DNA of 64,000 nucleotides from Alphaproteobacteria bacterium (lineage in GTDB: Bacteria > Pseudomonadota > Alphaproteobacteria > MPNO01). The DNA lies in assembly GCA_964291675.2 (NCBI GenBank), contig OZ219866.1, positions 3,584,001 through 3,648,000 of the forward strand, in the 5' to 3' direction. The notes beneath the pieces are model-generated. The model did no database searches and had not been told where the DNA came from. It saw only the letters and a list, made by a program, of their open reading frames with translations. This document shows, piece after piece, positions 38,675-55,896 of this stretch (the first letter of the stretch is position 1; every line of letters starts with the position of its first letter). Position numbers and translations under genes: made by a program.

Positions 38675-39077
38675 CGCCGTAAGTTACCGTTATACCGTAG
38701 TTTATTCGACCTTCCTGCTGGACTGATTCCAGCCCCGTAAGCATCCAGAGAGCGATCTGACTCCGAAACCGCGCGCCGCGGTGAACGCGTATGCCGCGGG
38801 CGTGGAGGACTCCTCCCAATTCCGGAATTTCTCCGCCGCACTGACCTGGGCCGGGGCCTTCGCGGACGCGGCAGGCGGGCGCCGGACGGGCTGACGACGG
38901 CCTCCAGTCGCGCGGTGCCGGCGCTGTCGTGCGGGAGCGCGCGCATTGGTCCGGACGGCGGGAGGTCGCCGGATTTCTCCTTACCGTGCGCTTTGCAAAC
39001 CCAGGCGGCGCCTCCTACGGTCGCTGCGTCGGTGCGCGGCAGCTCCGGCACATCCGGCAATCGGACGGGGGGGTAGC

Positions 39078-39296
39078 ATGGGCAACGACGACAGAGGCTT
39101 TTTCGATACCCGGCGCGCTGCGATCTACCTCGGCCTCTCGCACCGTACGCTGGACGGTTACCGCGTGAGCGGCGACGGGCCTGCTTTCCACCGCTTCGGG
39201 AACCGGGTGCGCTATTGCAGGTCGGATCTCGACGCGTGGGCTGCGAAGCGCAGGGCGACCACCACGGCGGAGGCCGACAGGCTCAGCGCGGCATAA
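39078..39296 (+). CDS. Helix-turn-helix DNA-binding protein (excisionase/AlpA-like)
   Basis: TRRAAIYLGLSHRTL..YR..GDGPAFHRFGNRVRYCRSDLDAW. Confidence 0.85.
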   Translation: MGNDDRGFFDTRRAAIYLGLSHRTLDGYRVSGDGPAFHRFGNRVRYCRSDLDAWAAKRRATTTAEADRLSAA

Positions 39297-39622
39297 GCGC
39301 GGATGCGATCGTGGGCAATGTGTCCGCGTGACCGTTCGTGCGAATGATCTTAGGGCAGAAGTCGAGGCGATTCCTCGCTTTGGGCATCCGGCGTCCCTGT
39401 CTGGTTGCTTCGTATGTTCCCGGCCCCAAAATTCCCGACGTGAACGGGAGATTCGTGTAGACACGGTCTTACGGCCAGAGTTCCCGGCAGTAATCGGCAC
39501 CGAACTTCAAGCCGACTACCAGTGAATTCATCGCAAGCGGCCCCGTTCAATGCGCCGCGTGTTACGTCGTAGATTTGCACAAGGTAGCATAAGCATCTTT
39601 CCGACGGCTCTTGGGAGGTATC

Positions 39623-40342
39623 GTGGAGATCGAAGTACTCGAATGCGACTGGGGCGTGGCGCGGCGCGATGACATCCGGGTACTGTTGATGGACGTCGCA
39701 TCGCACATCGTACGCGAGCTGCGAGATCCGCTCGACGAAACGATTCGCGTCATGAACCTGCCCGGGGAACCCCCGAGAGCCTTCTTCAGGAGACCGGGCG
39801 ATACCGCCTACGAAGTGAACCTCACGGCGAAGGATCGGAAGTGGAGTCAATTCGCCTACCAGTTCGGGCACGAGTCTTGCCATGTCCTTTCGGGACACGA
39901 CAAGTTGCGATGCGGTCCGAACAACTGGTTCCATGAGTCGCTCTGCGAGCTCTCCTCGTTCTTCGTGCTTCGCCGGATGGCAGAACGCTGGCCAACCGAT
40001 CCGCCGTACTCCACGTGGGCAGGCTACTCTGCGTCGCTGGCCGACTACGCTGAGTCTACGGCGAGCAAGTACAGTGAAGCCGCGCCGACCGGCTCTTTTC
40101 ACGCATGGTTGTTCGCGAACGAAATCCACATGCGAGATGACCCCTATCTTCGCGAACGGAACGGCGTCGTGGCTCTCAGGCTTCTCCCGTTGTTCGAGGA
40201 GACCCCGCAAGGGTGGAACGCCGTAAGGCATCTTCCGGTGTCCACGGGGATGATCGGTGAATACATCGAGGCGTGGAGGGCCGACGTGCAAGCTGTCGAC
40301 CGCCTGTTCGTCGAACGTGTCGGCGAAGCCTTAGCAGACTAA
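39623..40342 (+). CDS. Hypothetical protein with HExxH motif (putative zinc metallopeptidase)
   Basis: YQFGHESCH followed by NWFHESLCE; GTG start after GGAGG. Confidence 0.65.
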   Translation: MEIEVLECDWGVARRDDIRVLLMDVASHIVRELRDPLDETIRVMNLPGEPPRAFFRRPGDTAYEVNLTAKDRKWSQFAYQFGHESCHVLSGHDKLRCGPNNWFHESLCELSSFFVLRRMAERWPTDPPYSTWAGYSASLADYAESTASKYSEAAPTGSFHAWLFANEIHMRDDPYLRERNGVVALRLLPLFEETPQGWNAVRHLPVSTGMIGEYIEAWRADVQAVDRLFVERVGEALAD

Positions 40343-40742
40343 AAAGTTCCGGTCGTAGGATCATGTTTGAGTGAATGGAACTCGAACACGTGCACCTCCA
40401 AGACGAGGAGATTGCCGCCGTCGAAGTCTGGGGAGCCGTCGCGTCCCCGGACTGTGAAAGGCCAATCGGGATTGTGCCGCACACCTCGAGGCCCGGGGGT
40501 GGCGACTCGTTCCTGAACTGCATTGACGGTTCGGCGGCTTCCGACTTCTGCCCGCCCCCCCGAGGGCTGAAGCTCAGCTCTTAGCGTGAATATCTACACG
40601 AATGTTGTCGTACCCGTACAAGTTGAAACGAGTCTTGGCAGAGTTTGATCCGATTGGCGAGGCGCGGCCTCGCGATGCCTGATTCTCGCGGCGGTCTGGT
40701 TCGGAAGGGGCGCGTTCTCTGGACACGGGCAAACCCGTCCAT

Positions 40743-41765
40743 CTACTGAGTGACCAAGGAGAACACGAACCGCACCTGCAGAAAGTCGTCGGGGCCAGTT
40801 TCCAGCAGCTCACCGCGTTCGGAGAGGGTCAGTTGAGCAATTCGTTCGTGCGCAAGCGTGTCGAACCCGAGCGGAAGGCGTGCATTCGGATTGTGGATGA
40901 CGTAGAGGCCGTCAAGGAGATGTTCGGTGTATTCGGACTTGGGTGTTCTTCGGACGCGCGGTTCGATGGAGTCGGGATTGGGGTGGACGGTCGTGAACAC
41001 GAGATGGTCGACTGGGTCTTCGGCGAGCGCACGGATCTTCCCCATACCGGCGATAGGACTGTAAATCACGGCGCTGACGTGAGCATAGCGGTCGTCGCAG
41101 AAGAAACCGACCGGCAGGTCAACCGAATCGGACTTTGGAACTGTTGACAACGGATAGCGGATGACACGAGAGGACCGCGTCGCCATGCTCTGTTCTTCGT
41201 CAAAGTAGAGACCGAACAGGGCGGCGATGATCGGACGATTGTGCGCAAGCTGTGCGGCGGGTCGGTCGAAGGGCGCGAGCGCGATCACGAACGGTTTGTC
41301 CTTGACGTGGGCAAGCGTCGAGTGCCTATGGAGGTAGAGGTCGGATTTCGCGGTGAAGCGACTGCTGATCCGCACGATGGAATCTCGGTTGAACTCGTTG
41401 AGATCGACCGGAATCTCCGGCGGGCCCTCGCCAAATGCCGGCGGGCCGCCGGCGGGGGGCTGGGCGACGGTAGCTTCGACACACAGGTCGACTCCACGCA
41501 GGCTGGCCACGAAGTCGGGTCGGGAGTGCTTGAACTCGACGCCGCCGCCGAGCTCTCGGATGCAAGCGTGCACGTACAGCTCCCACATCGACGACTCGAA
41601 AGTGGTCTGGAACTCCTTGACGAACTTACCGTCGCGATCGACGAATCCTTGGCTCCAGTCGCGCAGCACGTCTCGCTCGGCGGCCTGTCGAGGGCCGCAA
41701 AGCCGACGGAAGATCGGATGCTGCTGCTGATCTTCGATCACTGGCGAAAACAGATCCACAGTCAC
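40743..41765 (-). CDS. Conserved hypothetical protein (possible restriction-endonuclease-like fold)
   Basis: GFVDRDGKFVKEFQTTFESSMWELY; RPDF...CVEAT resembles a PD-(D/E)xK core. Confidence 0.65.
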   Translation of the reverse strand: MTVDLFSPVIEDQQQHPIFRRLCGPRQAAERDVLRDWSQGFVDRDGKFVKEFQTTFESSMWELYVHACIRELGGGVEFKHSRPDFVASLRGVDLCVEATVAQPPAGGPPAFGEGPPEIPVDLNEFNRDSIVRISSRFTAKSDLYLHRHSTLAHVKDKPFVIALAPFDRPAAQLAHNRPIIAALFGLYFDEEQSMATRSSRVIRYPLSTVPKSDSVDLPVGFFCDDRYAHVSAVIYSPIAGMGKIRALAEDPVDHLVFTTVHPNPDSIEPRVRRTPKSEYTEHLLDGLYVIHNPNARLPLGFDTLAHERIAQLTLSERGELLETGPDDFLQVRFVFSLVTQ

Positions 41766-42075
41766 TAACCTCTCCGCTCTACCGTTGGCCTAGCACCATT
41801 GATCGACACAGGGCCTGTTTGCAAGCCACCAACCTGATTACGTAAAGGTGATACCTGTGGCGAACCGACAAGGTTACGGCTCCGCGACGGTGCTCGGCTG
41901 CGATGTTCTCGTCGGACCGGCACGTTGTGAGCTGCTCCGGGACGCAAACGTCGTGAGTGGGTCCGCGGGCGTCGGACAAAGTGCCATTCACAGGCGACAA
42001 CCGAACACGAACTGAGTGGTTTAGCCATTTCCTCGAGACAGAGACGTAATCAGGCGATTTCGTTCTTCGCGATTT

Positions 42076-42729
42076 CTAGTGACCGCGGGCCATTGGCTTG
42101 TGTTGCGCGAGGGCCCATCCCCGGTTCTCTGGCCAAGCTACGCCCTGATAGGCCACATCCAGCTCCTTCGCCGTAGGCAAGAAGCACTTTTCGTCAACGG
42201 TTCGAATATCTCCATAGAGTTGCGAGAGAAAATTCCTGTCAACACAGCGAAACACTAGGGAGAGAGGTTCCGTTGCATTTTCGTGTTTGCATTTGCAGTC
42301 CTTGAGCCTGCTCAGGCATTTGGAGCATCTCATGAACTCACGAATTGATTTTAGTGCAGTTGTCGTTGGAGTATATAGAAGATATTGTCTGAAGGGCTGT
42401 ACCTGTGCATGGCCAAATCCATTGCGATAGATCACTAACCGTTCAATAGCATCGTGTATTTTCGTATCCGCTTTCCATTTTGGCCAAGCGGACAAGAATT
42501 CGTTCTTGATTCTGCCGAAAGTAAGACGACCGATTTCGAGTCTTCGTCTCGCAAATTCCGGTGGATGATTGCTCGCTCCGTACGCCTTGTTGTAATTCGC
42601 CCGTAGAGCGCAGCTACCTTCGTGTAGGACCAACAAATCCCGCATTGTGCTTTCGACCCAACACAGAAACATGAAGCACTCGCCTGCGGACTGCAGATGG
42701 TTATCCGTTTCTACCCGCTTAGATGGCAT
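42076..42729 (-). CDS. Hypothetical protein, low GC
   Basis: 217-aa ORF in an AT-richer segment; RNGFGH resembles an Rx4H (HEPN-like) motif; CxxC..CxC cluster. Confidence 0.55.
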   Translation of the reverse strand: MPSKRVETDNHLQSAGECFMFLCWVESTMRDLLVLHEGSCALRANYNKAYGASNHPPEFARRRLEIGRLTFGRIKNEFLSAWPKWKADTKIHDAIERLVIYRNGFGHAQVQPFRQYLLYTPTTTALKSIREFMRCSKCLSRLKDCKCKHENATEPLSLVFRCVDRNFLSQLYGDIRTVDEKCFLPTAKELDVAYQGVAWPENRGWALAQHKPMARGH

Positions 42730-43155
42730 GTCAAAGGGACTCCTAGTTGGAAAGGTTCTTCATGATCACGTGCCAAGCTCATCCGGATCACCACCCCGGA
42801 GGATGTTCGACGACGATCTCGTCGGAACCGCGCGGTTCCGGCACTTGAACGACGGTTGCCGTCGACACCGTAAGCGGGCGGATACCGGGTGGTGCATCAG
42901 CCGCGCGCACTGGCCCGCAGCGTCGTCGTCGGAGCAATCCTGCGTCTCGCCATATAAGGATTCCCGCGCGCGAGGGAGCCGATGTCTGCCGCTGCTCTGC
43001 GCAGGCGTTCGCGCCGGTGGCGAATTTCAACGTTTCTCCCCAACTCCTCCCTGCCACAAACGCCCCGGACCCCCGGGTGGGCCTGGCGATGGTGCGCATC
43101 TGCGGCATGGGCGTTGCCGGGGCGAGCGGCAAGACGCGGGCCGGTTGGGCCGACT

Positions 43156-43431
43156 CTAGCCGTTGACCGCGTCGCGGAGGGCCTTCGCCGCCTTGAACGA
43201 AGGCGCCTTCGAGGCCGCGATGTCGACGGGCTCTCCGGTTCGGGGATTGCGGGCCGTTCGCGCCGCCCGGATGCGGGTCGTGAATTTCCCGAACCCCGCG
43301 ATGGTCACCGGCTCGTCGTTCGCCAGGGCGTCGGCGATGGTGGAGAACACGGCGGCGACCGTGCGCTCGGCGGAGGCCCTGGTCACCGACGTCTCGGCGG
43401 CAATACGCGCGGCGAGTTCGTTCCTGGTCAT
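43156..43431 (-). CDS. HU family DNA-binding protein
   Basis: MTRNEL, GFGKF, ARNPRTGE, PSFKAAKALRDAVN. Confidence 0.95.
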   Translation of the reverse strand: MTRNELAARIAAETSVTRASAERTVAAVFSTIADALANDEPVTIAGFGKFTTRIRAARTARNPRTGEPVDIAASKAPSFKAAKALRDAVNG

Positions 43432-44502
43432 TTTCGATTCCCCTGGACTTCGATCTCAGTGTGGGACACGGCGCGAGCTCGGATCAAGCGCGTCGGCGGC
43501 GTGACCATGTCCCAACCGGCATTTGGAACGCTGCCGGACCGAACGGACCTGCTCAAGCTCGGCCGGGTCTCGCCCGGCAGCGGCGACGCTGGCGTGGGGC
43601 GCCACGGGAAGGCAGAGAAGACTCGCGCGTCGCCTGTGCGCCGGAAGCCGCCGAAAGAGGTCGCGTGCCGGCGAGAGCCCAATGGCCATGGCCGCTTGAA
43701 TGGCGCAGCGGCCGCCTCACTTCGATCGGTAGAGAAGTTGCGGCCCGCCGAGCCTGATCGGGACGGCGGTATGTTCCAGAGCAGAAGTCACGTCATCGGC
43801 TGTCCCACCGTCGCCCGGACGCGAAGGACCGGAAAGGCGGCGGGGCCACCCACCCCCGACGAGCGTTCGCTCGCAATCGCGCCGGACAGGTTGAGGAGCG
43901 CCGGGCGCACTGTACAGAAGGTGCGCCCGGCAGAGTCCGCGCCCATCCCCACGGAAGTGTATCTGGCGCCGGCGGGAAGGCCGGCCGTACGGTCCGCCCC
44001 TCAGGCGACATGGTGCGCCACGGCGCCGGGAAAGATCGAACCGCGAAGCGGCCGACGGCGGCCGGGCGCATGCGGCACGGGCATGAATTTGGTGCGCAAA
44101 GGCATTTTCTTCCCGCTTGCGATGGCGGTAGTGGAATCGGTCCGGCACGCGGTGACGGAAGGGTCCGCCGCGGGAGGCGGGACCATGAGGGTAGAGCGAA
44201 CGAGCGAGACGCGGTCGTACGGGGCCGCCCGGCCGCCTCCGGACCTGCGGCGGCGGGGTCCCGCGAGCGGTTCTCCGGCCCGCGCGGAGGCGGCGGCAAG
44301 TGCGCCCCGGGCCCGGGGACGGCCCCGTGAGACGGCCTGGCGCGGAGCGCCGGGATGGGGCACGGAGCGGCGCGCGCGGGGCGGTGAAGGGACCGTCGGC
44401 ACCCGGTGCGTACCGGACGGCCTTCCGGGGCCGGATAGTCCAGCAATACCAAGAAGTTACAGCGAAGGACAGGCGTCGCGGGGCGGGTCTGCCGGGGGCC
44501 GT

Positions 44503-44536
44503 TTGGCTCGCGATAACTATTGTTATCAGGAGCCAA
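44503..44536 (-). other. lox-like recombination site L (13-8-13)
   Basis: TTGGCTCGCGATA-ACTATTGT-TATCAGGAGCCAA (arms match at 11 of 13); spacer is the reverse complement of the site R spacer. Confidence 0.85.
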
Positions 44537-44611
44537 CCCGCCAATTCCACCGTTTCCGACGGGCGGCCCCGAGGCCGCCCGGTCACGCGGCGGCAATCCT
44601 AGTTACCCTCG

Positions 44612-44640
44612 AAATCAATTGCAACCTGCTGGATTGTCAA
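44612..44640 (-). promoter_or_regulatory. Candidate outward-facing sigma70 promoter inside the invertible segment
   Basis: Perfect TTGACA on the minus strand at 44640-44635 in an AT-enriched patch; the -10 element is weak (TGATTT). Confidence 0.35.
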
Positions 44641-44722
44641 CGGGTTATCCGCGTCGGAGCGCCAGCGCGGCGCCATCCGGGCCCTCGGCGCGTGGACACC
44701 GGCCCAGCGCCAAGCGGCGAAT

Positions 44723-44735
44723 TTGGCTCGCGATA
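44723..44735 (+). other. Isolated lox-like half-site
   Basis: TTGGCTCGCGATA(AC) identical to the left arm of site L, with no matching right arm. Confidence 0.7.
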
Positions 44736-44820
44736 ACACTTTGTGGAAAACCGCCCCCTTGCACCGGTTCGGGACGGATCGACGCCAGCGGGGCAGGCCC
44801 CATCATAAGCCATCGCGCAC

Positions 44821-45792
44821 TCACGCACGACGCTGAAGACGCGCGAGCTGCGCCGCCCCGCTGCGCCGCGCCAGGAGCCGCTCGCCGTAGCGGTGCACCA
44901 TCGCCGTCGTCTTCCAGCGCCCCGCGTCCAGGATGGCCGGCATCCCGATGCCTTCGGCCACCATGTCCTGCGCCGCGCCCACCCGGGTGCTGTGCCCGGA
45001 GATGCGCGCGACAACGTCGCCCGGCAGCCCCGCGCGCTCGGCCATCGTCTTGAAGATGCGCGGCACCTGGCTCGCGTCGAGCCGCTCGCCGAGCGCGCCG
45101 CGGTTGAGCGAGCGGAACACCCTCCCCCCGGTCACACCGCTCCGCTCGCACCATGCGCGCACCAGCGCCACACTGTCGGGGGCGAGGTACAGGGTTGCGC
45201 CGCACCCCTCCGCGTCGGTCTTTGAGCGGCGCACCAGCACCGTCCCCGAGCCGTCCGCATCCACCACGATATCAGACACTTGCAGCGCGACGAGCTCGCC
45301 CCGGCGCAGCAGCGTGTCGTAGGCGACGGCGAGCAGGGCGCGGTTGCGCGCGTCGATGAGCGTGTCGCCGGTGGCGCCCATCAGGCGCTCGAGCAGCGCC
45401 CAGTTGAGCCCCTCGGCCTGCGCCTGGCGCCGCCCCTTGCGCCGGTGCATGCGCGCGAGCGCGCGGCGCACCGGCTCGCTTCGCGTCGTCTTCTCGAACC
45501 CCACCGCGCGGTGCGCGGCCGCGATGCTCGCCACGTAGCGGCGCACCGTCGCGGGCGCGCGCTCCTTCGCCATGGCGTCGACGAAGGCCGCGACCGTCTT
45601 CGGCGCCGCCGGCAGCGCGGTCAGTCCATGCGCCCCGCACCAGTCCTCGTAGATGGCGAGGTCCGAGCGCATCGCCCGCTCGGTGTTGTCGGCGAGCGCC
45701 CCGCGCGCGGACGCCGCGCAAGCGGTCCGCGGGCTCCGCTCGACGCAGCTTGCGCTCGTCTGCGCCGGCCGGTTCAGCGGTTCGACAAGCAT
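44821..45792 (-). CDS. Cre-family tyrosine recombinase
   Basis: SAM-like N-terminus (ADNTERAMRSD..DWC), RRGEL, RSKTD, SGHSTRVGAAQDM..G.....LDAGRW....VHRY, closely matching the Cre C-terminal catalytic region; RBS GGAGG. Confidence 0.92.
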   Translation of the reverse strand: MLVEPLNRPAQTSASCVERSPRTACAASARGALADNTERAMRSDLAIYEDWCGAHGLTALPAAPKTVAAFVDAMAKERAPATVRRYVASIAAAHRAVGFEKTTRSEPVRRALARMHRRKGRRQAQAEGLNWALLERLMGATGDTLIDARNRALLAVAYDTLLRRGELVALQVSDIVVDADGSGTVLVRRSKTDAEGCGATLYLAPDSVALVRAWCERSGVTGGRVFRSLNRGALGERLDASQVPRIFKTMAERAGLPGDVVARISGHSTRVGAAQDMVAEGIGMPAILDAGRWKTTAMVHRYGERLLARRSGAAQLARLQRRA

Positions 45793-45829
45793 CGATAAGC
45801 CTCCAGGTCCGTGAAACACGGCCCGGAGA

Positions 45830-45863
45830 TCGGCTCGCGATAACAATAGTTATCGCGAGCCGA
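45830..45863 (+). other. lox-like recombination site R (13-8-13)
   Basis: TCGGCTCGCGATA-ACAATAGT-TATCGCGAGCCGA with perfect arms (extending to 15 bp, 45828-45865), about 40 bp upstream of the recombinase start. Confidence 0.9.
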
Positions 45864-46150
45864 TCGACAGCGTCAGGGGGGTGGTCGATGGGCAATCCCG
45901 GGGACGGATACGGGTCTTCCTTCCTGCGGTTGGCAGGCAGACCCGGTGCACTCCGCGGCGGCGTCTCCACAGGCGCGGGTGCGCCGGCGAGGGATGCCGC
46001 ATGGCGACGTCGAGGGCGTCCATCTCCGGGCATCCATCCGAACCATAGGGCCAGGTCTTTCCCGGCGCGTCCCCAGTCCTGGGGAGGCGCGCGGGCGCGC
46101 GGCTCGGCTGCCGCCTGCGGCTTCGTCGGGGAAATCTTTGTGCGAACGCG

Positions 46151-49100
46151 ATGACGGGGGGTTCAGTGAGCGTATTCCGGAACGCATTCAATCGCGGCGG
46201 TTGCCGGTCGGCGGTCGCGGCGGCATCGGTGAGGTTCGGCTTCGGCGACGGGCCGGTAACGGGCGCGGAGGCGCCGGCGGAGGACCGGGCGGCCGCTCCC
46301 GAATTCTCCCCGGGCGGGGCCGAGGCGCGCGCGGACCGGCGGGCGCGGAACGCCGGGCCGGAGTCCGGGGCCGGAGCGGGGCGTCGCCAACGAGGACCGC
46401 GCCGGTCGGCCGGGGCATTCGCGGGGCGGGCGAACGCGGGCCGTCGTTCTTCCGACGACGGGCCGGCCCGCCCGAGGGCGACGCCGGCCGGTGCGCTGGC
46501 CACGGCCCGCCGCGCCGGGACGGCCGCGCTGCTGCTGGCCTGTCTCGCGCTGCCGCTCGCGGCGCTCTTCTCCACGCCGGCCCACGCGCAGACCGAGAAG
46601 ACGCGGGTCACCAACCACAGCGGGGCCAACGCGACCTCGAACGGCACCGTCGGCGGGCCGAGCGGGAGCCAGTGGGGCCAAGCGCAGCAGTTCACAACCG
46701 GCGCCGGCAGCCACACCCTCGGCTCGGTGGTCGCGCATCTGAGGTCTGTCGGCTCGCAGGCGGCTGTGAAGGTGAGCATCTACACCTCCACGTCCGGCAA
46801 CAAGCCCGACACCAGCCTCTACGTGCTGAACAATCCGACGACGATCGCCGCGACGTCGGACAACACCTTCACCGCGCCGAACAATGCGACGCTGGCAGCG
46901 AACACGAAGTACTTCGTGGTGTTCGAGAACACGGCCATGGGCAGCGGGAGCAGCTACACCTACAGCGTGCGGCGGACGACCTGGAACTCCGCGACCGCGA
47001 ATACCGGGTGGAGCATCGCCGACACATCCAGGAGTCGGACCAGTGAGACCGATAACTGGACCTCAACCATCAACGATTCCATCAAGATCGCCGTCAAGAC
47101 GTCCCACAACGCCGCGACGGGCCAGCCGGCGATTTCCGGCACGGCGCAGGTCGGAAACACGCTGACGGCCAACAAGGGCACCATCGCGGACTCCGACGGG
47201 CTGCCCTCGTTCCCGGGCGGCTTCACCTTCCAGTGGGTGCGCGGCGGCACCAACATCTCGGGGGCGACGTCGCGCGAATACACGCTGACGGACGACGACC
47301 AGGGCAACACCCTCAAGGTGAGGGTCTCCTTTACCGACAATGAGGGGTTTTCCGAGGGACCGCTCGAGAGCGTCGCGACGTCGTCGGTCGCGGCGATGCC
47401 GGCGAACGGCTGCACGCCGGACGACCTGCGGCTCGTCGGCGGCGACAACGACCGCGAGGGCGAGGTGGAGATCTGCCACAACAACCAGTGGCGGAACGTG
47501 TGCGACGACGATTGGGAGAAGGTGGACGCCAACGTCGCGTGCAAGCAGCTCGGCTACACCCAGGGCGCCCGGCGGGCCACGATACTCTCCGAGTTCACTA
47601 CTTTGATCTCCGTCCAATTCTGGCTTGACGATGTCGCGTGCACCGGCAGCGAGACGAAGCTGGCGGAGTGCGAGCATGCGGGCTGGGGCGTGAACAACTG
47701 CACCCACGCCGAACGGGCCGGCGTGGTCTGCAAGGCGAATGCCAACGTCGCCGCCACGGGCCAGCCGGCGATATCCGGCACGGCCGTCACCGGCGAGGAC
47801 CTGACGGCGTCGACCGACGGGATCTCGGACGACAACGGCAACACCAAGGCGGAGGACGGCGATACCGGCTTCGCCTACACCTACCAGTGGTTCCGGGTCG
47901 ATTCCGACGGCACCTCGAACAAGACCCAGATCACGGGCGAGACGGCATCGACCTACACCCTGGTCGCGGCCGACGTGGGCAAGAAGGTCATCGTGGAGGT
48001 GAGCTTCACCGACGACGAGAGCAACGCCGAGGGGCCGCTCGCGAGCGACGCCTATCCCGCCGGGACCGGCACGGTCGAGTCGGCCGACTCGACGCCGCCG
48101 GAGGTGGACTCGGCGACGGTGGACGGCACGTCGCTGGCGATCACCTTCAACGAGGACCTCGCCGCCGCGGCCAACCTCGCGAACGATGCCTTCGAGGTGA
48201 AGCGGACGCCGCCGGGCGAGGCCGAGGAGACGGTGACGCTCACCGGCTCGCCGGCGATCAGCGGCATGACCGTGACGCTGACGCTGGATGCCGCGGTGAT
48301 TGCGGGCGACGCGGTGACGGTGGGCTACACCAAGCCGACCTCGGGCACCGACAACGTGCTCGAGGACGCGGCGGGCAACGAGGTGGCGGATTTCACGGAG
48401 ACGGTCACGAACGACACCGAGGTCGTCAACAACCCCGCGACGGGTGTGGCCATCGACGGCCCGGCGCAGGTGGGCATGACGCTGACGGCGGACACCTCCG
48501 GCATCGAGGACGCCGACGGTCTGACCGGCGCGACGTTCGAATACCAGTGGTTCAGCGGCGGCACCGAAATCCCGGGCGAGACCGGGTCCACCTACACGGT
48601 GCGGCCCGCGGACGTCCTCAAGCGGATCAAGCTGCGGGTGACGTTCAAGGACGACGCCGGCAACGACGAGGCGCCGGAGAGCCCCGCCATAGCGCCGGCC
48701 GTGCCGGCGGCGGCCGACCACTGCGACTCCCTGACCGTCTGGTGCGCCACGCTGACCGCGGGTGCAGACGATGCAATTCTTGACGACGCTGGCAGACTAC
48801 TAGACGCTGACGAAACGGGTTACCTGCGCGCTACGCGTTCCGGGCGTGGCAGGGCGCCTGCGGTTCCGCGGCGCATCCGGCGAAGACTCTTGGCGGACGT
48901 CATCGAACCATTCGAGGAGCAGAAGGCAGAACGTGGCGAGTCTGACTGGAACGATGTCGCTATCGAAGCCGCAGCTACGCATAGCCATGGCTACGATGTG
49001 GTCGTGGTCGATGAAGCCCAGGACCTCTCAGCAAACCAAGTAAGAACCATCCTCGCGCACTTGAGGGAAGACCACTCGACGACCTTCATCATGGATGCCG

Positions 49101-49750
49101 TGCAGCGAATCTACCCGCAGGGCTTCCAATGGAGAGAAGTGGGCATCGATATGCGTCCGCAAATGGTGTTCGCCCTAACTCGCAACCATCGCAATACAGG
49201 GGAGATCGCCAGGTTTGCGGCGTCATTAGTACGGGACCTCCCGCTAGAGGAGGATGGTTTGGTGCCTGACGCAAACGCGTGCGAGCGTTCGGGTCCACTT
49301 CCTCGTGTGGTGGTAGGAAGATACGCTGCTCAGGTCAACTACATGCTGAACGAGGTTCAAGAAGCTATAGAATCCGAGGAAACGATCGCTATCCTCCACC
49401 CCAAGGGGTGGTTCGATTACGCAAGGGGGACGCTTGACCGACGCGGCATCGACTACTGTGAGCTGACACGACAGCGCGAATGGCCGACCGGGCCGGAGCT
49501 GGTCGCGTTGTCAACGTTTCATTCCGCAAAAGGTCTCGAATTCGATCATGTGCTTATGCCTGGCCTAAATCAGGAGGTCACCCCTCATGGTGACGAAGAC
49601 GGAGACGGCACGCTCGACTCTCTTCGCCGCTTGGTGGCTATGGGTATCGGGCGCGCCAGACGCTCCGTCATGGTCGGTTGCAAACCTGGAGAAGAATCGA
49701 CGTTGATTGAGATGTTTGATCCCGAAACCTACGAACTCGTTCGGGTTTGA
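46151..49750 (+). CDS. Chimeric ORF: secreted adhesin N-terminal part (Ig-like repeats, SRCR, SwmB-like) fused to a UvrD-like SF1 helicase C-terminal half
   Basis: Signal peptide (AHAQ), ATGQPAISGTA repeats, SRCR; after ~48820 VVVDEAQD, LTRNHRNT, STFHSAKGLEFD, GIGRAR; no Walker A; no beta-barrel; codon usage changes. Confidence 0.75.
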   Translation: MTGGSVSVFRNAFNRGGCRSAVAAASVRFGFGDGPVTGAEAPAEDRAAAPEFSPGGAEARADRRARNAGPESGAGAGRRQRGPRRSAGAFAGRANAGRRSSDDGPARPRATPAGALATARRAGTAALLLACLALPLAALFSTPAHAQTEKTRVTNHSGANATSNGTVGGPSGSQWGQAQQFTTGAGSHTLGSVVAHLRSVGSQAAVKVSIYTSTSGNKPDTSLYVLNNPTTIAATSDNTFTAPNNATLAANTKYFVVFENTAMGSGSSYTYSVRRTTWNSATANTGWSIADTSRSRTSETDNWTSTINDSIKIAVKTSHNAATGQPAISGTAQVGNTLTANKGTIADSDGLPSFPGGFTFQWVRGGTNISGATSREYTLTDDDQGNTLKVRVSFTDNEGFSEGPLESVATSSVAAMPANGCTPDDLRLVGGDNDREGEVEICHNNQWRNVCDDDWEKVDANVACKQLGYTQGARRATILSEFTTLISVQFWLDDVACTGSETKLAECEHAGWGVNNCTHAERAGVVCKANANVAATGQPAISGTAVTGEDLTASTDGISDDNGNTKAEDGDTGFAYTYQWFRVDSDGTSNKTQITGETASTYTLVAADVGKKVIVEVSFTDDESNAEGPLASDAYPAGTGTVESADSTPPEVDSATVDGTSLAITFNEDLAAAANLANDAFEVKRTPPGEAEETVTLTGSPAISGMTVTLTLDAAVIAGDAVTVGYTKPTSGTDNVLEDAAGNEVADFTETVTNDTEVVNNPATGVAIDGPAQVGMTLTADTSGIEDADGLTGATFEYQWFSGGTEIPGETGSTYTVRPADVLKRIKLRVTFKDDAGNDEAPESPAIAPAVPAAADHCDSLTVWCATLTAGADDAILDDAGRLLDADETGYLRATRSGRGRAPAVPRRIRRRLLADVIEPFEEQKAERGESDWNDVAIEAAATHSHGYDVVVVDEAQDLSANQVRTILAHLREDHSTTFIMDAVQRIYPQGFQWREVGIDMRPQMVFALTRNHRNTGEIARFAASLVRDLPLEEDGLVPDANACERSGPLPRVVVGRYAAQVNYMLNEVQEAIESEETIAILHPKGWFDYARGTLDRRGIDYCELTRQREWPTGPELVALSTFHSAKGLEFDHVLMPGLNQEVTPHGDEDGDGTLDSLRRLVAMGIGRARRSVMVGCKPGEESTLIEMFDPETYELVRV
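47426..47731 (+). other. Scavenger receptor cysteine-rich (SRCR) domain
   Basis: LRLVGG..EGEVEI..N.W..VCDDDW...A.V.CKQLGY...WLDDVAC.GSE..L..C...GWG..NC.H.E.AGVVC. Confidence 0.92.
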
Positions 49751-49755
49751 TCCCC

Positions 49756-50448
49756 ATGTCGAGGGACAACTTCATTCCGGCTCGTCCAAGAAGATCGGAC
49801 GAAATCGAACTTCTGCCGACATGTCCGGAAGTCCTCGCGGCGGCGGAAGAGCGGGAAGTGCGGAACGTGATGCATTTCACAACGATGACCGGCGCGGTCG
49901 GGGTTTTGGCCGCTGGCGCCGTCAAGAGTCGAGAGCGGCTACCCGAAGACAAGTATCTTGAATACGTCTATCAACCGAACGCAGCATACCGCAAGGACAC
50001 TGCCTGGCTGGACTATGTGAATCTCTCCGTGGAGCGCATCAACGCCTGGATGTTCGATGCATCTCAGCGTTGGCATGCGGCCGAGGGAAATCCTTGGGTT
50101 TTGCTGTCGTTTTGCCCGGAGATATTGGCGCATCCGGGGGTGGTGTTTACGACGACAAACAACATTTATCCAGCGTGTACTCGCGCCGAAGGCTTACCGG
50201 GATTCGAGCGGATGTTCGCAGAGACGGTTGTTGGTCGTTACAACAGCGTTCATGGCCGTGATGGAAAGCATTCCGCATGGCCCACCGACCGACAGGCGGA
50301 AGTTCTGTATCCAGGCGAGCTGTCGTGCGAGTATCTGCAACGGATTGATGCCCAAACAGAAGATGCTGCTGACGGGATTCATGGCATGTTGAGTGGTCTC
50401 CAATTGGATGAGATTACCGTTCGTCATGCACCGGAGGCGTTCGAATGA
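49756..50448 (+). CDS. darT: DarT-like (DUF4433) DNA ADP-ribosyltransferase
   Basis: HFTT N-terminal motif, G...SR, YVNLS, FTTTN, QAEVL catalytic glutamate motif. Confidence 0.8.
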   Translation: MSRDNFIPARPRRSDEIELLPTCPEVLAAAEEREVRNVMHFTTMTGAVGVLAAGAVKSRERLPEDKYLEYVYQPNAAYRKDTAWLDYVNLSVERINAWMFDASQRWHAAEGNPWVLLSFCPEILAHPGVVFTTTNNIYPACTRAEGLPGFERMFAETVVGRYNSVHGRDGKHSAWPTDRQAEVLYPGELSCEYLQRIDAQTEDAADGIHGMLSGLQLDEITVRHAPEAFE

Positions 50449-52181
50449 CTGTTTCGGAATCGCTTCGTGGGGCTCCGCCACCGGATACCGGGGAGGTTCC
50501 ACAGCCTAGCAATGTGGCTTCAACTCAGTTTGCAGCGCGTGCCGCGATGACCCACCGTTCCGCTCTGTGGGCGGCTTACGGGGACGCATTGGGCTGGATC
50601 AGTGAACTGACCGATTCGAGAGGACTGAAGCGAAGGACGGGAGGTGAGCCGCTTTGCCGTCCCATCGCATGGAATAGGAGGATCGGTGGGCGGGGGGGAA
50701 TCACCGTAACGTTGCCGGTGGGTTGCTACTCAGATGATTCCCAGTTGCGTCTCGCCACCGGCCGGGCGATTGGGCCTAGTGGTTTCGATGTTGAAGCGTT
50801 CGCAAAGGTCGAACTCCCAGTCTGGCTAAGCTATGGGCTCGGGGGAGGCAAATCTACGAGCGCTGCTGCGGGGAACCTGTCTAGACAGACAGTCCCTTGG
50901 TTCGCCAACACGTTCAAGGGATGGAGTAACTCCGGCGGAAACGGCGCGGCGATGCGCATCCAACCCCACGTCTGGGCGAGCTCGGATTTGGACGACGCTC
51001 GCACGTACCTGCCCGACGTTGTGCGCAACTCGATCTGTAGCCATTCCCATCCCATCGGATTGCTCGGGTCGGTGGTTCATGCACTGACGCTCGCACAAAC
51101 CATGTCCACCGGCCATCAACCATCGGTCAGTGACGTAATGGAGGCTGTCAAGAAAGCGGCTGAACTCCCCGAGTTGATGAGGAGCGATACCGAGGTAGGA
51201 AGCTATTGGCGCGGAGCTTTTGAACGGGAGTCAGGAAGTTTCGATGACGCATGGAGGCGTGCAATCGAAGAATGCAGGGAAGCGGTGTCAGTTGCTGGAG
51301 CAAGCCCTTCGAATGCGAATGGAGCTGAACGCTATGGCGCTTTGATCCAGGGCCTTAGACTTCGCGAGCCAGCGCGGAGAGGCAGCGGAATGCTGACTGC
51401 AGTCGCGGCGGTCGGTTTGTTGTGGTGCGAAGCTGAACCGGAAAAGGCCATGCGTATCGCAGCAAACGAACTAGGGACAGATACTGATACGATTGCGTCG
51501 ATGGCCGGCGCGATCGCCGGTGCGGTCGCTGAAGCCGAGCCGCAAGTGCAGGTGCTGGATGCGGAGCTATTCCGTTCTGAGGCTAATCGGTTGGTAAGGG
51601 TTGCCTTTGGCGAACGTCCGGTTGGCCATCGTTATCCCGATCTGCTGCGCTGGTCGGCGCCGTCCAGACGCGCCGATACTTTGGTGCGCACGAAAGACGA
51701 GGGTCTCTACGTTCGGGGTCTAGGCCTCGCTAAAACTGCGAGCGATCCGATAACGTCGCCGAGTGGCGATTTCCAATGGCAGTGGTTGACGCTTGAATCT
51801 GGTCAGACCTTGCTAATCAAGCGCAGGGCTGACCTGATGCTCATCGAAGATGAAATTGAGACATCGCCGGCGCAACGGTCTCTGCATCCGATGCCGCCCA
51901 GGGTCGATGCCGGCCAGGAGCCATCTGCGGTGGAGCGTCGAGCAACCGATTCGGATTGTCCGGTGGAAGCGCCTCCCGAGGAAGCAAGGGATGCTACCTC
52001 AAGAACTGAGTCGTCCTTGGATCTGCAGGTCGCGCTCCACTATATCGAGGAGCACAAGGATGATGACAGAGCTGTCGGGGCCGCCTTGCGGCGCGTCGTC
52101 AACAAGGGGACTCCAGGCCAAATTGCAGCATTCACCTCCGCCTTGATCGATCATCTGGGAAAGACTGAGAGGAGGAGGTGA
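50445..52181 (+). CDS. ADP-ribosylglycohydrolase (ARH/DraG family) with C-terminal extension
   Basis: AYGDALG, YSDDSQL, GNGAAMR, HSHP, DTDTIASMAGAIAGA; ATGA-coupled to darT. Confidence 0.9.
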   Translation: MTVSESLRGAPPPDTGEVPQPSNVASTQFAARAAMTHRSALWAAYGDALGWISELTDSRGLKRRTGGEPLCRPIAWNRRIGGRGGITVTLPVGCYSDDSQLRLATGRAIGPSGFDVEAFAKVELPVWLSYGLGGGKSTSAAAGNLSRQTVPWFANTFKGWSNSGGNGAAMRIQPHVWASSDLDDARTYLPDVVRNSICSHSHPIGLLGSVVHALTLAQTMSTGHQPSVSDVMEAVKKAAELPELMRSDTEVGSYWRGAFERESGSFDDAWRRAIEECREAVSVAGASPSNANGAERYGALIQGLRLREPARRGSGMLTAVAAVGLLWCEAEPEKAMRIAANELGTDTDTIASMAGAIAGAVAEAEPQVQVLDAELFRSEANRLVRVAFGERPVGHRYPDLLRWSAPSRRADTLVRTKDEGLYVRGLGLAKTASDPITSPSGDFQWQWLTLESGQTLLIKRRADLMLIEDEIETSPAQRSLHPMPPRVDAGQEPSAVERRATDSDCPVEAPPEEARDATSRTESSLDLQVALHYIEEHKDDDRAVGAALRRVVNKGTPGQIAAFTSALIDHLGKTERRR

Positions 52182-52525
52182 TGCGGCGGCCGAAGCATCG
52201 AGTATGGGCTAGTGGTTATAGCGCCCGAGCGGGGATCTTTGCTGGTCGCGGGTCCTCGGGCGACTGCGCGAACGCATCGGTGAGTGCGTCCGCGCCGCGG
52301 GACTGCTCTTGCTCGCAGAGAGTCCCTGGCTTTCTTGGTTTCCCTTCGCGTTCTTGACTTGCCCTACCCGCACCCGAAGTCGCACCGTTACCGTTCGGCT
52401 GGGGCGCTTGCGCAGGTGCGGCTGTTCGCGGAGATCGTGCGCGATATCGCGCCCTTCAACAAGAAAACATTCATACTTACTATTGACCTTCGAACATGAC
52501 CGTCAAAGGCGACGACACAAATACA

Positions 52526-53815
52526 ATGACAAAACAGAAACAAGACTTTTTGGCTGAACAACAAGAACGATATGAATGGTTGCGTCGTGTCACTGACGAA
52601 GCAATTGCTGCGCGCACGAAGGAGGTAGAATTCCACGGCCTAGAGGAAGAGTTGCGGAATTTACAGAAAGCAATTCTGGATAGTTACAATCACACAAAAC
52701 CAATAAAACATCCTCGCGACAAAGGCGATCATCGCGAAGAGATATTGAGACATTTTCTCACCAAACACGGCCTCCTGCCCAACAGTGTCAGTATACCATC
52801 TGTCAGCACACGAGTAGTTTCCCCATCAGGCCACATCAGTCCGGAGCTTGATATTCTTTTTGTCAACGCGAACGATTCAATAGTTCTTAAGAGATATGAA
52901 AACACGCTTGAATACTATCCCGTAGAATCTGTGCTTGGTACGATACAAGTGAAGTCGAAACTAACGAAAAAGGAGTTGGCATCTGGGCTAAAGCATATAC
53001 AGGCTTTCAAGAACATAAGACCAATCCGCTCGCTAAGGCGTCAAATGGGCGGCTTCACAATGGAGGCAGGTCTCTACCGGAGGTTTGGCATTCTATTCGC
53101 ATACGAGCGTGCCTTACGGTGGGAGAAAATGGTTGAGGTCATTCGTGAGCATTTAGCTGAGTGCCCAAACAGCCTTTGGCCAAACATGATAGTGATTCTG
53201 GACGCGGGTTATTTTCTTATTGGTGACAAGTCGCGTTATGCGTGGAATCAGAGAACTCTTGAGGACATATCAAATCCAGAAATTCATGGTTCTCCGGACT
53301 ATTCTGGGCACTGTCTACAGCAATTCTATTCTTATCTGATTGCTCTCGTGAAGGAAGCAAATAGTGGTTGGCCGGATACGAACGATTACTTGCGTATGCC
53401 GATTGCTGTGGGGGAACACTCTCTCGAATTTGCGCATGGCGGGTTTTCTGAATTCGCCAAATGTCCTCAACATGGAAACTACTTGAAAAAGATTAAGGTG
53501 GAGAATATCAAGATAATACTAGATAAGACCAAAAATAGTGAACCAATTAATTGGATTAAGGCGTTGGACCTGGCAGCGGGCAAACCCGGCACGGACTCTG
53601 AACGTTATGCGAAACAACCTGGCGACGTTATTGTGTATGATCCGGATAGTCTTGGTCTAGAGAATGTATTGTTGAGCGCGGAGGGGTTCATTACGCACGA
53701 ACAGGTTATCATTGACGGCCGTCAATACTGGCTTCCTTGGCACTACGTTGTTGCTCACGAGCTTATTGATCCGTGTCCGCAGTGCCGAGATGGTGCGAAA
53801 GATGCGAAGTCATAG
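52526..53815 (+). CDS. DUF6602/NucC-like restriction-fold nuclease with C-terminal extension, low GC
   Basis: HPRDKGDHREEIL..LP..VVSPSGHISPELDILF..YPVESVLGTIQVKS pattern resembles the NucC N-terminal core; start could be 52496. Confidence 0.7.
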   Translation: MTKQKQDFLAEQQERYEWLRRVTDEAIAARTKEVEFHGLEEELRNLQKAILDSYNHTKPIKHPRDKGDHREEILRHFLTKHGLLPNSVSIPSVSTRVVSPSGHISPELDILFVNANDSIVLKRYENTLEYYPVESVLGTIQVKSKLTKKELASGLKHIQAFKNIRPIRSLRRQMGGFTMEAGLYRRFGILFAYERALRWEKMVEVIREHLAECPNSLWPNMIVILDAGYFLIGDKSRYAWNQRTLEDISNPEIHGSPDYSGHCLQQFYSYLIALVKEANSGWPDTNDYLRMPIAVGEHSLEFAHGGFSEFAKCPQHGNYLKKIKVENIKIILDKTKNSEPINWIKALDLAAGKPGTDSERYAKQPGDVIVYDPDSLGLENVLLSAEGFITHEQVIIDGRQYWLPWHYVVAHELIDPCPQCRDGAKDAKS

Positions 53816-53992
53816 CATGTGGATCCCCGGTTACGGCATGTCCAAAAGTCAGTTCTGTTGCCGCTGTAGCCCTGCGTAAAGGTAATGGGGTTGCGAGGGA
53901 ACAGCTAGACGAGGAAATGGGGGCTTTTTTCACAAGGTACAGGGTCTCGCACAGGCATATGGATGGGATTTGCCGCAAGAGAGTGGTTTAGA

Positions 53993-55195
53993 TCACATGG
54001 CGGCGGCAACCTCTGGCGGCGTGTCCATGTCGGCTTCGAGACTGTCGGAAATCCGAACGGCAGCGACCTTGACCGAGTGCTGGCCAAGGTGTGCATAGCG
54101 CGCGGTCGTCTGCACCTTAGTGTGACCGAGCAGCTTCCCGATCATCGGGAGACCCTCCCCGAGGGCGAGCAATCGCGAGGCGAAGCTGTGACGCAAATCA
54201 TGCAGGCGGACGTCTTCGAGCCCCGCCTCCCTGCGGACGAGCTGCCACGACGCGTTCAGCGTCCGCAGGCGGGAGCCGCGCACGCGGCCGGGAAACACCC
54301 ACGGGTTGTCGGGCCGGCGCGGCAGCGCGATCAGGACCTGCTTCGCCGCGGGCGAGAGCGGCACGGCCCGCGCCCCGGTCTTCGCATCCCGGAGCCGCAA
54401 CTCGTCGTGTTCGAGGTCGACATGCTCCCATTTCAGGGTCACGATCTCGTTGCGTCGGCAGCCGGTCAGCATCAGCAGGCGCAGCGCCCCGGCGGCGCTC
54501 GTTGAGACCGTGCCCGCGGCTTCGAGCTCGGCGAGCACGCGGCCCAACCGGTCGAACTCCTGCTCCGACAGGAAGCGCTCGCGCCCGCGCGTGGGGTATT
54601 TCTGGATGAACCGGCAGGGATTGCCGCCGGCCGGCGCCGCGCCCGACTTGGCGGCGGTGTAGAACAGTCGGGAAAGCAGCGAGACCGCCTGGTTCGCCAT
54701 GGTCGGCGTCGCGCGCATCCGGTAGTGTAGCGCCGCAATATGGTCGGGCGTGACCTCGCTCAGGCGCAGGGCCCCGAACTTCGGCAGCAGGAACCTGTCC
54801 AGGATGTAGCGGCATCCCCGCTGCGTCGTCGGCTTGCAGCGCACGGCGACATGTTCGGTCATGTAGCGCTCGGCCATCTCGGCGATCGTCGGCCCGTTGG
54901 CCGAGGGGGAATCGGCGCCCGGGCGGCTCGGCGTCTCGCCCGCCTTCAGGCTGGCAAGCAGCCGTCCCGCCTCGCGCCGCGCCCGCTCGGGCGTCCACAC
55001 TCCGTGGCGGCCGATGGTGACGCGGCGTGTTTTCCCCCGGGCGCGGGTCTGCACCATGTAGACCTTCGAGCCCGAGGGATGGACGCGCACCCCGAAGCCG
55101 GTGAGGTCGCGGTCCCAGAACAGGGCTTCGCGCTCGGCGACCGGCAGGGCGTCCACCGCGCGCCGGGAAAGGACGAGCTTGTTCGGGCTTGGCAT
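53993..55195 (-). CDS. Tyrosine integrase with N-terminal Arm DNA-binding domain
   Basis: WDRDLTGFGVRV, TIGRHG; TGCRRNE, AKTG, HDLRH, LLGH, TTARYAH. Confidence 0.93.
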   Translation of the reverse strand: MPSPNKLVLSRRAVDALPVAEREALFWDRDLTGFGVRVHPSGSKVYMVQTRARGKTRRVTIGRHGVWTPERARREAGRLLASLKAGETPSRPGADSPSANGPTIAEMAERYMTEHVAVRCKPTTQRGCRYILDRFLLPKFGALRLSEVTPDHIAALHYRMRATPTMANQAVSLLSRLFYTAAKSGAAPAGGNPCRFIQKYPTRGRERFLSEQEFDRLGRVLAELEAAGTVSTSAAGALRLLMLTGCRRNEIVTLKWEHVDLEHDELRLRDAKTGARAVPLSPAAKQVLIALPRRPDNPWVFPGRVRGSRLRTLNASWQLVRREAGLEDVRLHDLRHSFASRLLALGEGLPMIGKLLGHTKVQTTARYAHLGQHSVKVAAVRISDSLEADMDTPPEVAAAM

Positions 55196-55215
55196 GGCGG
55201 TCTCCCGTGAGAAGT

Positions 55216-55896
55216 TCATTTGACGCCGACGTGCTGGGAGCCGTCCGGCGGCACGAGCCTGGGGCCGAGGTCGTCGCCGATGTTGGCCGTGGCATGGCGC
55301 ACCGAGTCGCGGGCGAGATGCGCGTACCGCGCGGTCGTGGTCACCATGCGATGACCGAGCAGGTCGCCAATCATCGGCAGCCCCTCGCCGAGCGCGAGCG
55401 CCCGGGAGGCGAACGTATGTCGCAAGTCATGCAGGCGGACGTCTTCGAGCCCGGCCTCCTTGCGCACGCGGTCCCACGAGTCGTTGAGGTTGACCAGCCG
55501 GGTGCCCTTCTTCTTGCCCGGGAACACCCACGGATTGCCGGGCGTGCGGGCGAGGCCATCGAACACTCTCGCGGCGGCGGGGGTGAGCGGGACCATGCGG
55601 GTACCAGTCTTCGTGTCGGGGAGCCGCATTTCGCCGGTGTGGAAGTTGAGGTCGTCCCACCGAAGCCCGAGGATTTCGTTACGGCGGCACCCGGTCAGCA
55701 CCAGGAGCCGGATGGCCGCCGCCGCGTGGGTGGAGGCGAGCCGCTTTCCCGGGGCCGCCCGCAGCGTCTCGCCGAGCCGGAAGAGCTCCTCGCGGGTCAG
55801 GAACCGCTCGTGCTTCTCGACCCGGAAGCGGGGCACGCTCCGGGCCGGGTTGCTGCCGGAGGGCCGCCAGCCCCAAGCGTCCGCCAGGTTGAACAT
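55216..55896 (-). pseudogene. 5'-truncated tyrosine integrase (catalytic domain only)
   Basis: Begins mid-protein at MFNLA..NP; TGCRRNE, TKTG, HDLRH, TTARYAH intact; Arm and core-binding regions missing. Confidence 0.8.

Follow-up and report, generated by a model that had tools for sequence, protein, structure and literature searches.

What does a recombinase gene do when it lies between two recombination sites of its own? The question is raised by a locus in a 64,000-nt stretch of an alphaproteobacterial genome (assembly GCA_964291675.2, contig OZ219866.1, positions 3,584,001 to 3,648,000; hereafter the window), in which the gene for a Cre-like recombinase is bracketed by two 34-bp sites of 13-8-13 architecture, here called U (upstream of the gene) and D (distal to it), with a lone half-site, M, between the gene and D. 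An initial annotation had read the locus as a ~1.33-kb segment that flips, a Hin-like architecture built on a Cre-type enzyme, without describing M, an outward promoter-like element (P_out), or the surface-protein gene adjoining U. We consider it probable that the locus is a self-contained invertible cassette (an inverton) around a Cre-type recombinase, controlling an adhesin-like gene. In such a cassette, the recombinase would bind both of the 34-bp sites that bracket its own gene, with strand exchange in the six central base pairs of each spacer; between inverted sites, this reaction would flip the ~1.33-kb segment, and P_out, which reads outward from the segment across D, would then read across a hybrid site into the divergent adhesin-like gene. 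With P_out moved to the U side, inversion would switch the surface gene on.

By sequence, the gene between the sites encodes a Cre-type tyrosine recombinase, as the initial annotation had it. Pfam found PF00589 (Phage_integrase, E = 2.4e-18) alone, and 17 of the 18 matches in a phmmer search of the PDB were to Cre or Tre (E about 1e-21), followed by XerD (E = 2e-6); the phmmer alignment, made by sequence only, pairs residues 31–309 with Cre 34–330, in keeping with a two-domain Cre-like protein of about 320–345 aa. BLASTP against Cre of a P1-like phage gave 28% identity, with catalytic residues R163, K191, H267, R270, W293, and Y302 identical to Cre R173, K201, H289, R292, W315, and Y324, a set that has tryptophan in place of the usual second histidine. 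These six residues are invariant across 28 family members. We rejected an integron or Xer assignment, for which NCBIfam scores fell far under the cut-offs, as well as a Hin/Gin-type serine invertase, since Pfam returned no serine-recombinase catalytic domain. The likeness to Hin is thus a parallel in layout, an analogy and not membership of that family.

Both 13-8-13 sites lie where the initial annotation placed them, with the sequences it gave (Table 1). U stands 37 nt upstream of the recombinase ATG, inside a perfect 17-4-17 palindrome (45828–45865), and U and D together form a 35-nt inverted repeat with 89% complementarity; the inner arm of D carries two mismatches (CAGGAGCC in place of CGCGAGCC). 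Their spacers, ACTATTGT and ACAATAGT, are exact reverse complements, confirming that the sites are compatible and inverted, with a polarity that rests on only two of eight positions because the spacer is nearly palindromic (direct comparison, 6/8). An exact arm recurs at 44725–44737, within M, which lies 83 nt past the recombinase stop codon and 188 nt inward of D. Across the 4,808,006-base genome, only four exact copies of the 13-mer GGCTCGCGATAAC exist, all of them within this cassette. Genome-wide, GATA-N8-TATC occurs 11 times, with arms palindromic at 11 or more of 13 positions in only four, and those four are two pairs flanking the two recombinase paralogs of this genome. The site match is beyond chance, and chance is excluded. 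A genome-wide repeat family was rejected, the site pairs being confined to the two recombinase loci, as was a promoter formed at the junction of an excision circle, the spacers being inverted and not direct. Rfam and tRNA scans of the window gave no matches.

The same layout recurs among relatives. The paralog, on the genome's other contig (positions 265842–267227 there), is 66% identical and has different arms and a different spacer, with an upstream site ATTACGCGCGATA-ACTGTCGC-TATCGCGCGTAAT, a half-site after the gene, and then a distal site ATTACGCTCGATA-GCGACAGC-TATCGCGCGTAAT. The suggestion that the locus holds an orthogonal recombinase/site pair is borne out to this extent: one genome carries two paralogs that differ in arms and spacers and are presumably orthogonal. 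More than 2,600 relatives, nearly all of 323 aa and mostly from metagenome assemblies, are found in the protein database, up to three of them on one chromosome-sized contig. Searches of species-representative genomes gave few loci, and most relatives came from metagenome contigs, where a scan with the family alignment gave 71 loci; a search of genome contigs with a single protein returned one degraded fragment (L011) and was uninformative. Drawing on the window, the paralog's locus, two genomes of the same genus, and contigs from metagenomes, we tabulated 17 site pairs (window, L010, L013, L014, L017, L018, L020, L021, L022, L026, L027, L029, L032, L034, L035, L038, and L039), leaving out exact duplicates (L019, L023, L024, L028, L033, L055, L048, and L056). 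Read in gene orientation, the plan is U, gene, often M, and D, with U 32–62 nt before the ATG, D 114–321 nt after the stop codon, and M, where present (9 of 16 loci examined), 155–199 nt from D and mostly at 177–178 nt; the ribosome-binding site is kept as CGGAGGC in the relatives' leaders. Whether homologs are also flanked by inverted sites, a point raised in the initial annotation, can be answered: the paralog and 15 further loci are. The pair brackets the gene in 16 of 17 cases. L035 is the exception: its two full sites, inverted, enclose 324 bp of non-coding DNA immediately after the gene, a segment that carries TTGACA and has an SWM/fn3 gene beyond it and the recombinase gene on its other side. 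Extra CGATA-N8-TATCG matches in three genomes (G016, G017, and G019) were set aside as a separate motif with non-palindromic arms; a motif CCCTTCGATA-GGGGCTTA-TATCGACNNCTTGACAG, likewise with non-palindromic arms, occurs at several places in G017 and G019 (L092, L098, and L099) and is unrelated to the cassettes.

The spacers of the 17 pairs are the strongest evidence here that the segment inverts, evidence that is comparative and not direct. When each U was compared with the reverse complement of its D, the arms differed at 66 of 440 positions and spacer positions 1 and 8 at 11 of 34; positions 2–7 differed at none of 102 in the inverted register and at 80 of 102 in the direct register. There are 10 distinct spacer cores, every one matched exactly by its partner, and Fisher's test of core against arms gave p = 7.6e-7 when every pair was counted and 2.8e-4 when each core contributed a single pair. 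Around the cassette, the sister loci L034 and L038 share about 94% identity; their spacers, ACGGGATT/AATCCCGT and ACTGGATT/AATCCAGT, respectively, differ by two changes that compensate each other. Cre makes its cuts 6 bp apart and requires identity in that overlap. The co-variation fits Cre-like strand exchange across a 6-bp core between inverted partners, and it would not arise unless U and D were kept compatible as an inverted pair. It is very unlikely, in our judgment, that the sites do not recombine at all, serving as operators at a divergent promoter region or persisting as relics of an integrated plasmid's resolution system. U does sit between two divergent start codons, as an operator would, the single site of plasmid-borne relatives (described below) overlaps their presumed promoter region, and the inverted form was not observed; an operator role, however, leaves a second full site 1.3 kb away unexplained, together with an identity that is strict in the central 6 bp only, and in the inverted register, while the arms drift. 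The invariance of the six catalytic residues also speaks against this reading.

The cassette has a constant neighbor. Wherever a U-side flank is available (15 distinct loci), the first gene past U runs divergently to the recombinase gene, and 14 of these 15 genes encode extracellular-repeat domains or a signal peptide, the domain types being SRCR, Calx-beta, SWM_repeat, fn3, Big, cadherin-like, fasciclin, and PPC. The presumed target in the window encodes SRCR, SWM_repeat, and Ig-like domains, with its signal peptide coded ~660 nt from U and an in-frame stop at 46046–46048, upstream of the listed open reading frame (ORF). The corresponding gene encodes Calx-beta in the paralog's locus, a protein of about 1,900 aa with fn3, Calx-beta, and cadherin-like domains in G019, combinations of Ig-like, SWM, Big_5, Calx-beta, SRCR, and fn3 domains in L017, L020, L022, L027, and L032, fn3 in L050 (of the L039 type), and fasciclin in L012. 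Those of L013 and L018 have a signal peptide only (with Calx-like repeats in L018 by eye), those of L034 and L038 were assigned by N-terminal likeness to L032, and that of L021 has a PPC domain only, with no signal peptide seen. The start codon of the surface gene lies 25–40 nt from U in L032, L034, L038, and L021, too close for the gene to have its own promoter outside the site; elsewhere, 165–660 nt separate U from the signal-peptide codons.

This constancy bears on a second alternative, which we regard as decidedly unlikely: that the locus is a small mobile element whose terminal inverted repeats are the 34-bp sites and whose recombinase moves the 1.36-kb unit, the link to surface genes reflecting target preference or hitch-hiking. 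All 15 distinct loci show the cassette in one and the same position and orientation relative to the secreted-protein gene, and inverted core sites lead to inversion, not excision. The spread of the family is patchy, as that of a mobile element would be (present in 3 of the genus's 11 other genomes, in 0 of 66 from elsewhere in the order, and in 1 of 400 further genomes sampled from the class), and several diverged paralogs can share one chromosome; each site type nevertheless occurs once per genome, and the paralog is only 66% identical, figures on which we also rejected an insertion sequence or transposon with multiple near-identical copies. L010 and L013 share homology between the outer edges of their U and D sites, and its end at U would suit a mobile unit, but the D-side flanks of the two loci are syntenic, and no target-site duplication or flanking direct repeat was seen in the sequence. 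Contig depth in the metagenome runs, at 250–1000 over the gene and 20–60 in the flanks, also favors mobility.

If the segment inverts, what would it control? The −10 hexamer of P_out falls in the D spacer, and the element in the window matches the consensus at 8 of 12 positions. At the same position, 1–3 nt inside the inner arm of D and pointing outward, 9 of the 15 loci tabulated carry a perfect TTGACA, spaced 16–17 nt from a (T/G)ACAG(T/C) hexamer in the D spacer, in contrast to the rest of the M-to-D stretch, which is poorly conserved. L021 passes a strict sigma-70 scan (TTGACA-17-TACAGT), and the L032 group has TTGAC(A/G) ~30 nt further inward. M probably binds an additional recombinase monomer and may influence how often, or in which direction, the segment switches. 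That the segment inverts with another output, toggling the recombinase or a distal RNA or gene, or only modulating a surface gene that has its own promoter, is in our view unlikely. The 165–660 nt between U and the signal-peptide codons in most loci give room for such a promoter, a room that the loci with start codons 25–40 nt from U do not offer. On the distal side, where P_out faces ORF-free DNA in the assembled orientation, most loci have 0.6–1 kb of such DNA after D, several with a short conserved stretch of hairpin potential (by eye) directly after the site; the distal-side genes, however, differ in kind and orientation among loci, and in L035 the TTGACA-bearing segment lies directly upstream of the same class of surface gene. 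This alternative would also sit well with the assembly of every locus in the supposed OFF state.

That last observation is among several that weigh against an inverton controlling the adhesin-like gene. A search for sequencing runs gave one with 0.92 of the sequence words (X6) and five with small shares. Among the joints listed in assembled (Logan) contigs of four metagenome runs (X6, X1, X2, and X4), no strand-changing joint was found; assembled contigs drop minor variants, and the run comparison is not decisive either way. An all-against-all megablast of the loci gave no pair with the same flanks and opposite cassette, only co-linear matches of near-duplicates. The inverted junctions that the initial annotation suggested seeking appeared neither among the joints listed nor in relatives' loci, and the flip it proposed is backed by comparison (the same layout in relatives, cores free of mismatches) and not by an inverted read or contig. 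In all 15 distinct loci, L035 included, the assembled P_out points away from the surface gene, a uniformity that calls for a strong OFF bias unless the ON/OFF assignment is wrong. The promoter evidence is at the consensus level only: the strict sigma-70 scan found no promoter in 43000–46800 of the window and failed in L034 and L018, TTGACA is lacking in L026, L039, and L081, and a search for the recombinase's own promoter gave no convincing candidate. Palindrome and inverted-repeat scans found no convincing sites in L016, L030, L031, and L036, which belong to the same clade, and the loci counted here are related, several coming from repeated assemblies, so that the counts overstate independence. 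Some unitigs begin at D, which the palindrome alone could cause, and we did not count this as evidence. Separately, repeated TTCATA motifs without a 13-8-13 site occupy the 100 nt before the recombinase gene in L030, L031, and L036.

How does the inverton we propose compare with known systems? The enzyme shares a near full-length alignment and its catalytic residues with Cre/loxP of P1 and the Cre-type group (Dre/rox, Vika/vox, Nigri/nox, and Panto/pox), which likewise have a 34-bp 13-8-13 site next to the gene; the arms of loxP end in ATA...TAT like those of the cassette. Cre-type systems have one site, used for circularization and dimer resolution. The cassette differs from Cre in its 28% identity, in having two native inverted sites around the gene plus a half-site, and in its chromosomal position by a surface-protein gene; given the conserved half-site and an HU gene 1 kb away, its enzyme may or may not act without host accessory factors. 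The closest parallel in layout is the Hin/hix H-segment of Salmonella, in which the recombinase gene and an outward promoter lie in a ~1-kb segment with a surface-protein gene just outside; Hin is a serine recombinase that requires an enhancer and Fis, and the cassette enzyme is a tyrosine recombinase. Two further systems can be likened to it by layout. The 2-micron Flp/FRT system also has a tyrosine recombinase gene between inverted targets, with inversion as its natural reaction and copy-number amplification as its purpose, and TnpI/IRS of Tn4430, which serves cointegrate resolution, has extra recombinase-binding motifs beside the core site that resemble M. In FimB/FimE-fimS, the C. difficile RecV switches, and ipuS/UpaE, as far as the accessible portions of the literature describe them, a tyrosine recombinase likewise inverts a promoter segment by an adhesin gene. 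L035, with its recombinase gene outside a 324-bp segment, matches the Fim-type layout; the window, set against those same descriptions, differs in having the gene inside the segment, a Cre-type enzyme private to each switch, and long 13-8-13 sites rather than short inverted repeats needing IHF or Lrp.

Where could such a cassette have come from? Relatives at about 50% identity occur on Methylobacterium/Methylorubrum plasmids, among others (NC_010510.1 and NC_012987.1), and carry only one GATA-N8-TATC site, ~40 nt ahead of the gene, with no partner site within 3 kb and no adhesin neighbor, against the two sites of the cassette; presumably they resolve plasmid multimers. We had considered a dimer-resolution system of the Cre/lox or Xer/dif kind for the window, and its hallmark, one site per replicon that acts in direct repeat on dimers, does not fit the two inverted full sites of the cassette; the single site is found in these plasmid relatives. 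A U-like site is present in some of the relatives with identities of at most 54%, a partner site in none of them, and for the site in L012 no partner was found before the contig ended. A tree rooted with Cre for drawing places the two-site loci together in a group of 20 rows (support 93/80, not starred) that also takes in L035 and the four site-less rows, and the tree would allow a single origin of the two-site loci. The simplest account of that origin may be a resolution-type plasmid system that gained a second, inverted site. A wider view, which we hold only tentatively, is of a family of plug-in, mutually orthogonal Cre-type invertons that arose from a plasmid resolution system, each independently phase-varying one adhesin-like or eukaryote-like surface protein in symbionts of sponge-type communities with a built-in directional bias. 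Each cassette would then consist of its own recombinase, a private pair of 34-bp sites, an accessory half-site, and an outward promoter, and the bias would stem either from the half-site or from recombinase expression that depends on orientation.

Promoter inversion is a familiar means of phase variation, and Cre-type enzymes are known for single-site resolution or circularization and for genome engineering. The locus appears to join the two, with a Cre-type enzyme that would act as a private invertase, encoded in the segment it flips, next to genes for large adhesin-like or eukaryote-like surface proteins. If confirmed, it would make phase-variable surface display in symbionts of sponge-type communities directly testable, illustrate how the gain of one inverted site can turn a resolution system into a switch, and provide diverged Cre-like enzymes whose native 34-bp targets are known, two of them, presumably orthogonal, in one genome; the wider view, if true, would amount to a natural collection of 10 or more Cre-like enzyme/site pairs with targets readable from sequence. 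Our literature search, which took in accessible portions of papers and did not cover supplementary tables, found no account of a Cre-type recombinase gene lying between native sites in inverted orientation; the accessible portion of a study on finding Cre-type sites does not mention inverted flanking pairs (PMC10250229), and a term search of PMC5903667 returned nothing.

In the window copy, the recombinase ORF is intact, U is perfect, and the spacer cores match; its mutated inner arm, weak −35 hexamer, and truncated target gene make it look partly eroded, and it may be a switch that has lost a complete target. The composition of the surface-protein ORF shifts at ~48,700, where GC content at third codon positions falls from ~0.95 to ~0.65 and the 3′ end of the gene is replaced by lower-GC DNA with an in-frame UvrD-like C-terminal fragment. 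The lower-GC DNA that follows, with its DarT, ADP-ribosylglycohydrolase, and integrase genes, looks like a defense island inserted in the surface-protein gene.

Table 1. Coordinates of the cassette and of its surroundings in the window
Feature	Position	Strand	Details
Distal full site D (L of the initial annotation)	44503-44536	.	TTGGCTCGCGATA-ACTATTGT-TATCAGGAGCCAA
P_out, promoter-like	44516-44544	-	-35 TTGGCG (44544-44539), 17-nt gap, -10 AATAGT (44521-44516)
Half-site M	44723-44737	+	TTGGCTCGCGATAAC, lone arm without partner arm
Cre-type tyrosine recombinase coding sequence	44821-45792	-	323 aa, ATG at 45792-45790
Ribosome-binding site GGAGG of recombinase gene	45800-45804	-	read from sequence
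Proximal full site U (R of the initial annotation)	45830-45863	.	TCGGCTCGCGATA-ACAATAGT-TATCGCGAGCCGA
Presumed target, gene for secreted SRCR/Ig-like/SWM-repeat protein	45864-48700	+	divergent; listed ORF 46151-49750
Stretch beyond D	43432-44502		~1.07 kb without credible ORF
HU gene	43156-43431	-	~1 kb from cassette
ORFs	42647-43159 and 42788-43132		no Pfam match
ORFs	39350-40291, 40743-41765, and 42076-42729 (larger ORFs of second lower-GC block)	-	no Pfam match
Second lower-GC block	39000-43000		GC 0.53-0.62
Lower-GC island	48700-55300		GC 0.48-0.59; starts with UvrD-like helicase C-terminal fragment
DarT	49747-50448		island
ADP-ribosylglycohydrolase	50445-52181		island
DUF6602 protein	52496-53815		island
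P4-type integrase	53993-55219	-	island

Beside and over the HU gene, at 42834–43334, summed contig depth in the metagenome runs peaks at up to ~1085, against 20–60 nearby. Elsewhere in the family, L017 (6003–8634) and L016 (115–2425) have a LuxR-type gene with a second recombinase paralog after it (327 aa, PF00589; no detectable sites), and the same pair of genes occurs in G232, a genome of another family. L042, one of the relatives that share at most 54% identity, carries ~800 nt downstream of its recombinase gene a 234-nt partial copy of the gene's 3′ part, in inverted orientation (4486–4719). Two loci at ~49% identity (L061, 250–300, and L062, 16–45) adjoin the apparent 3′ end of a tRNA gene, which points to ordinary integrase-type elements in this branch.

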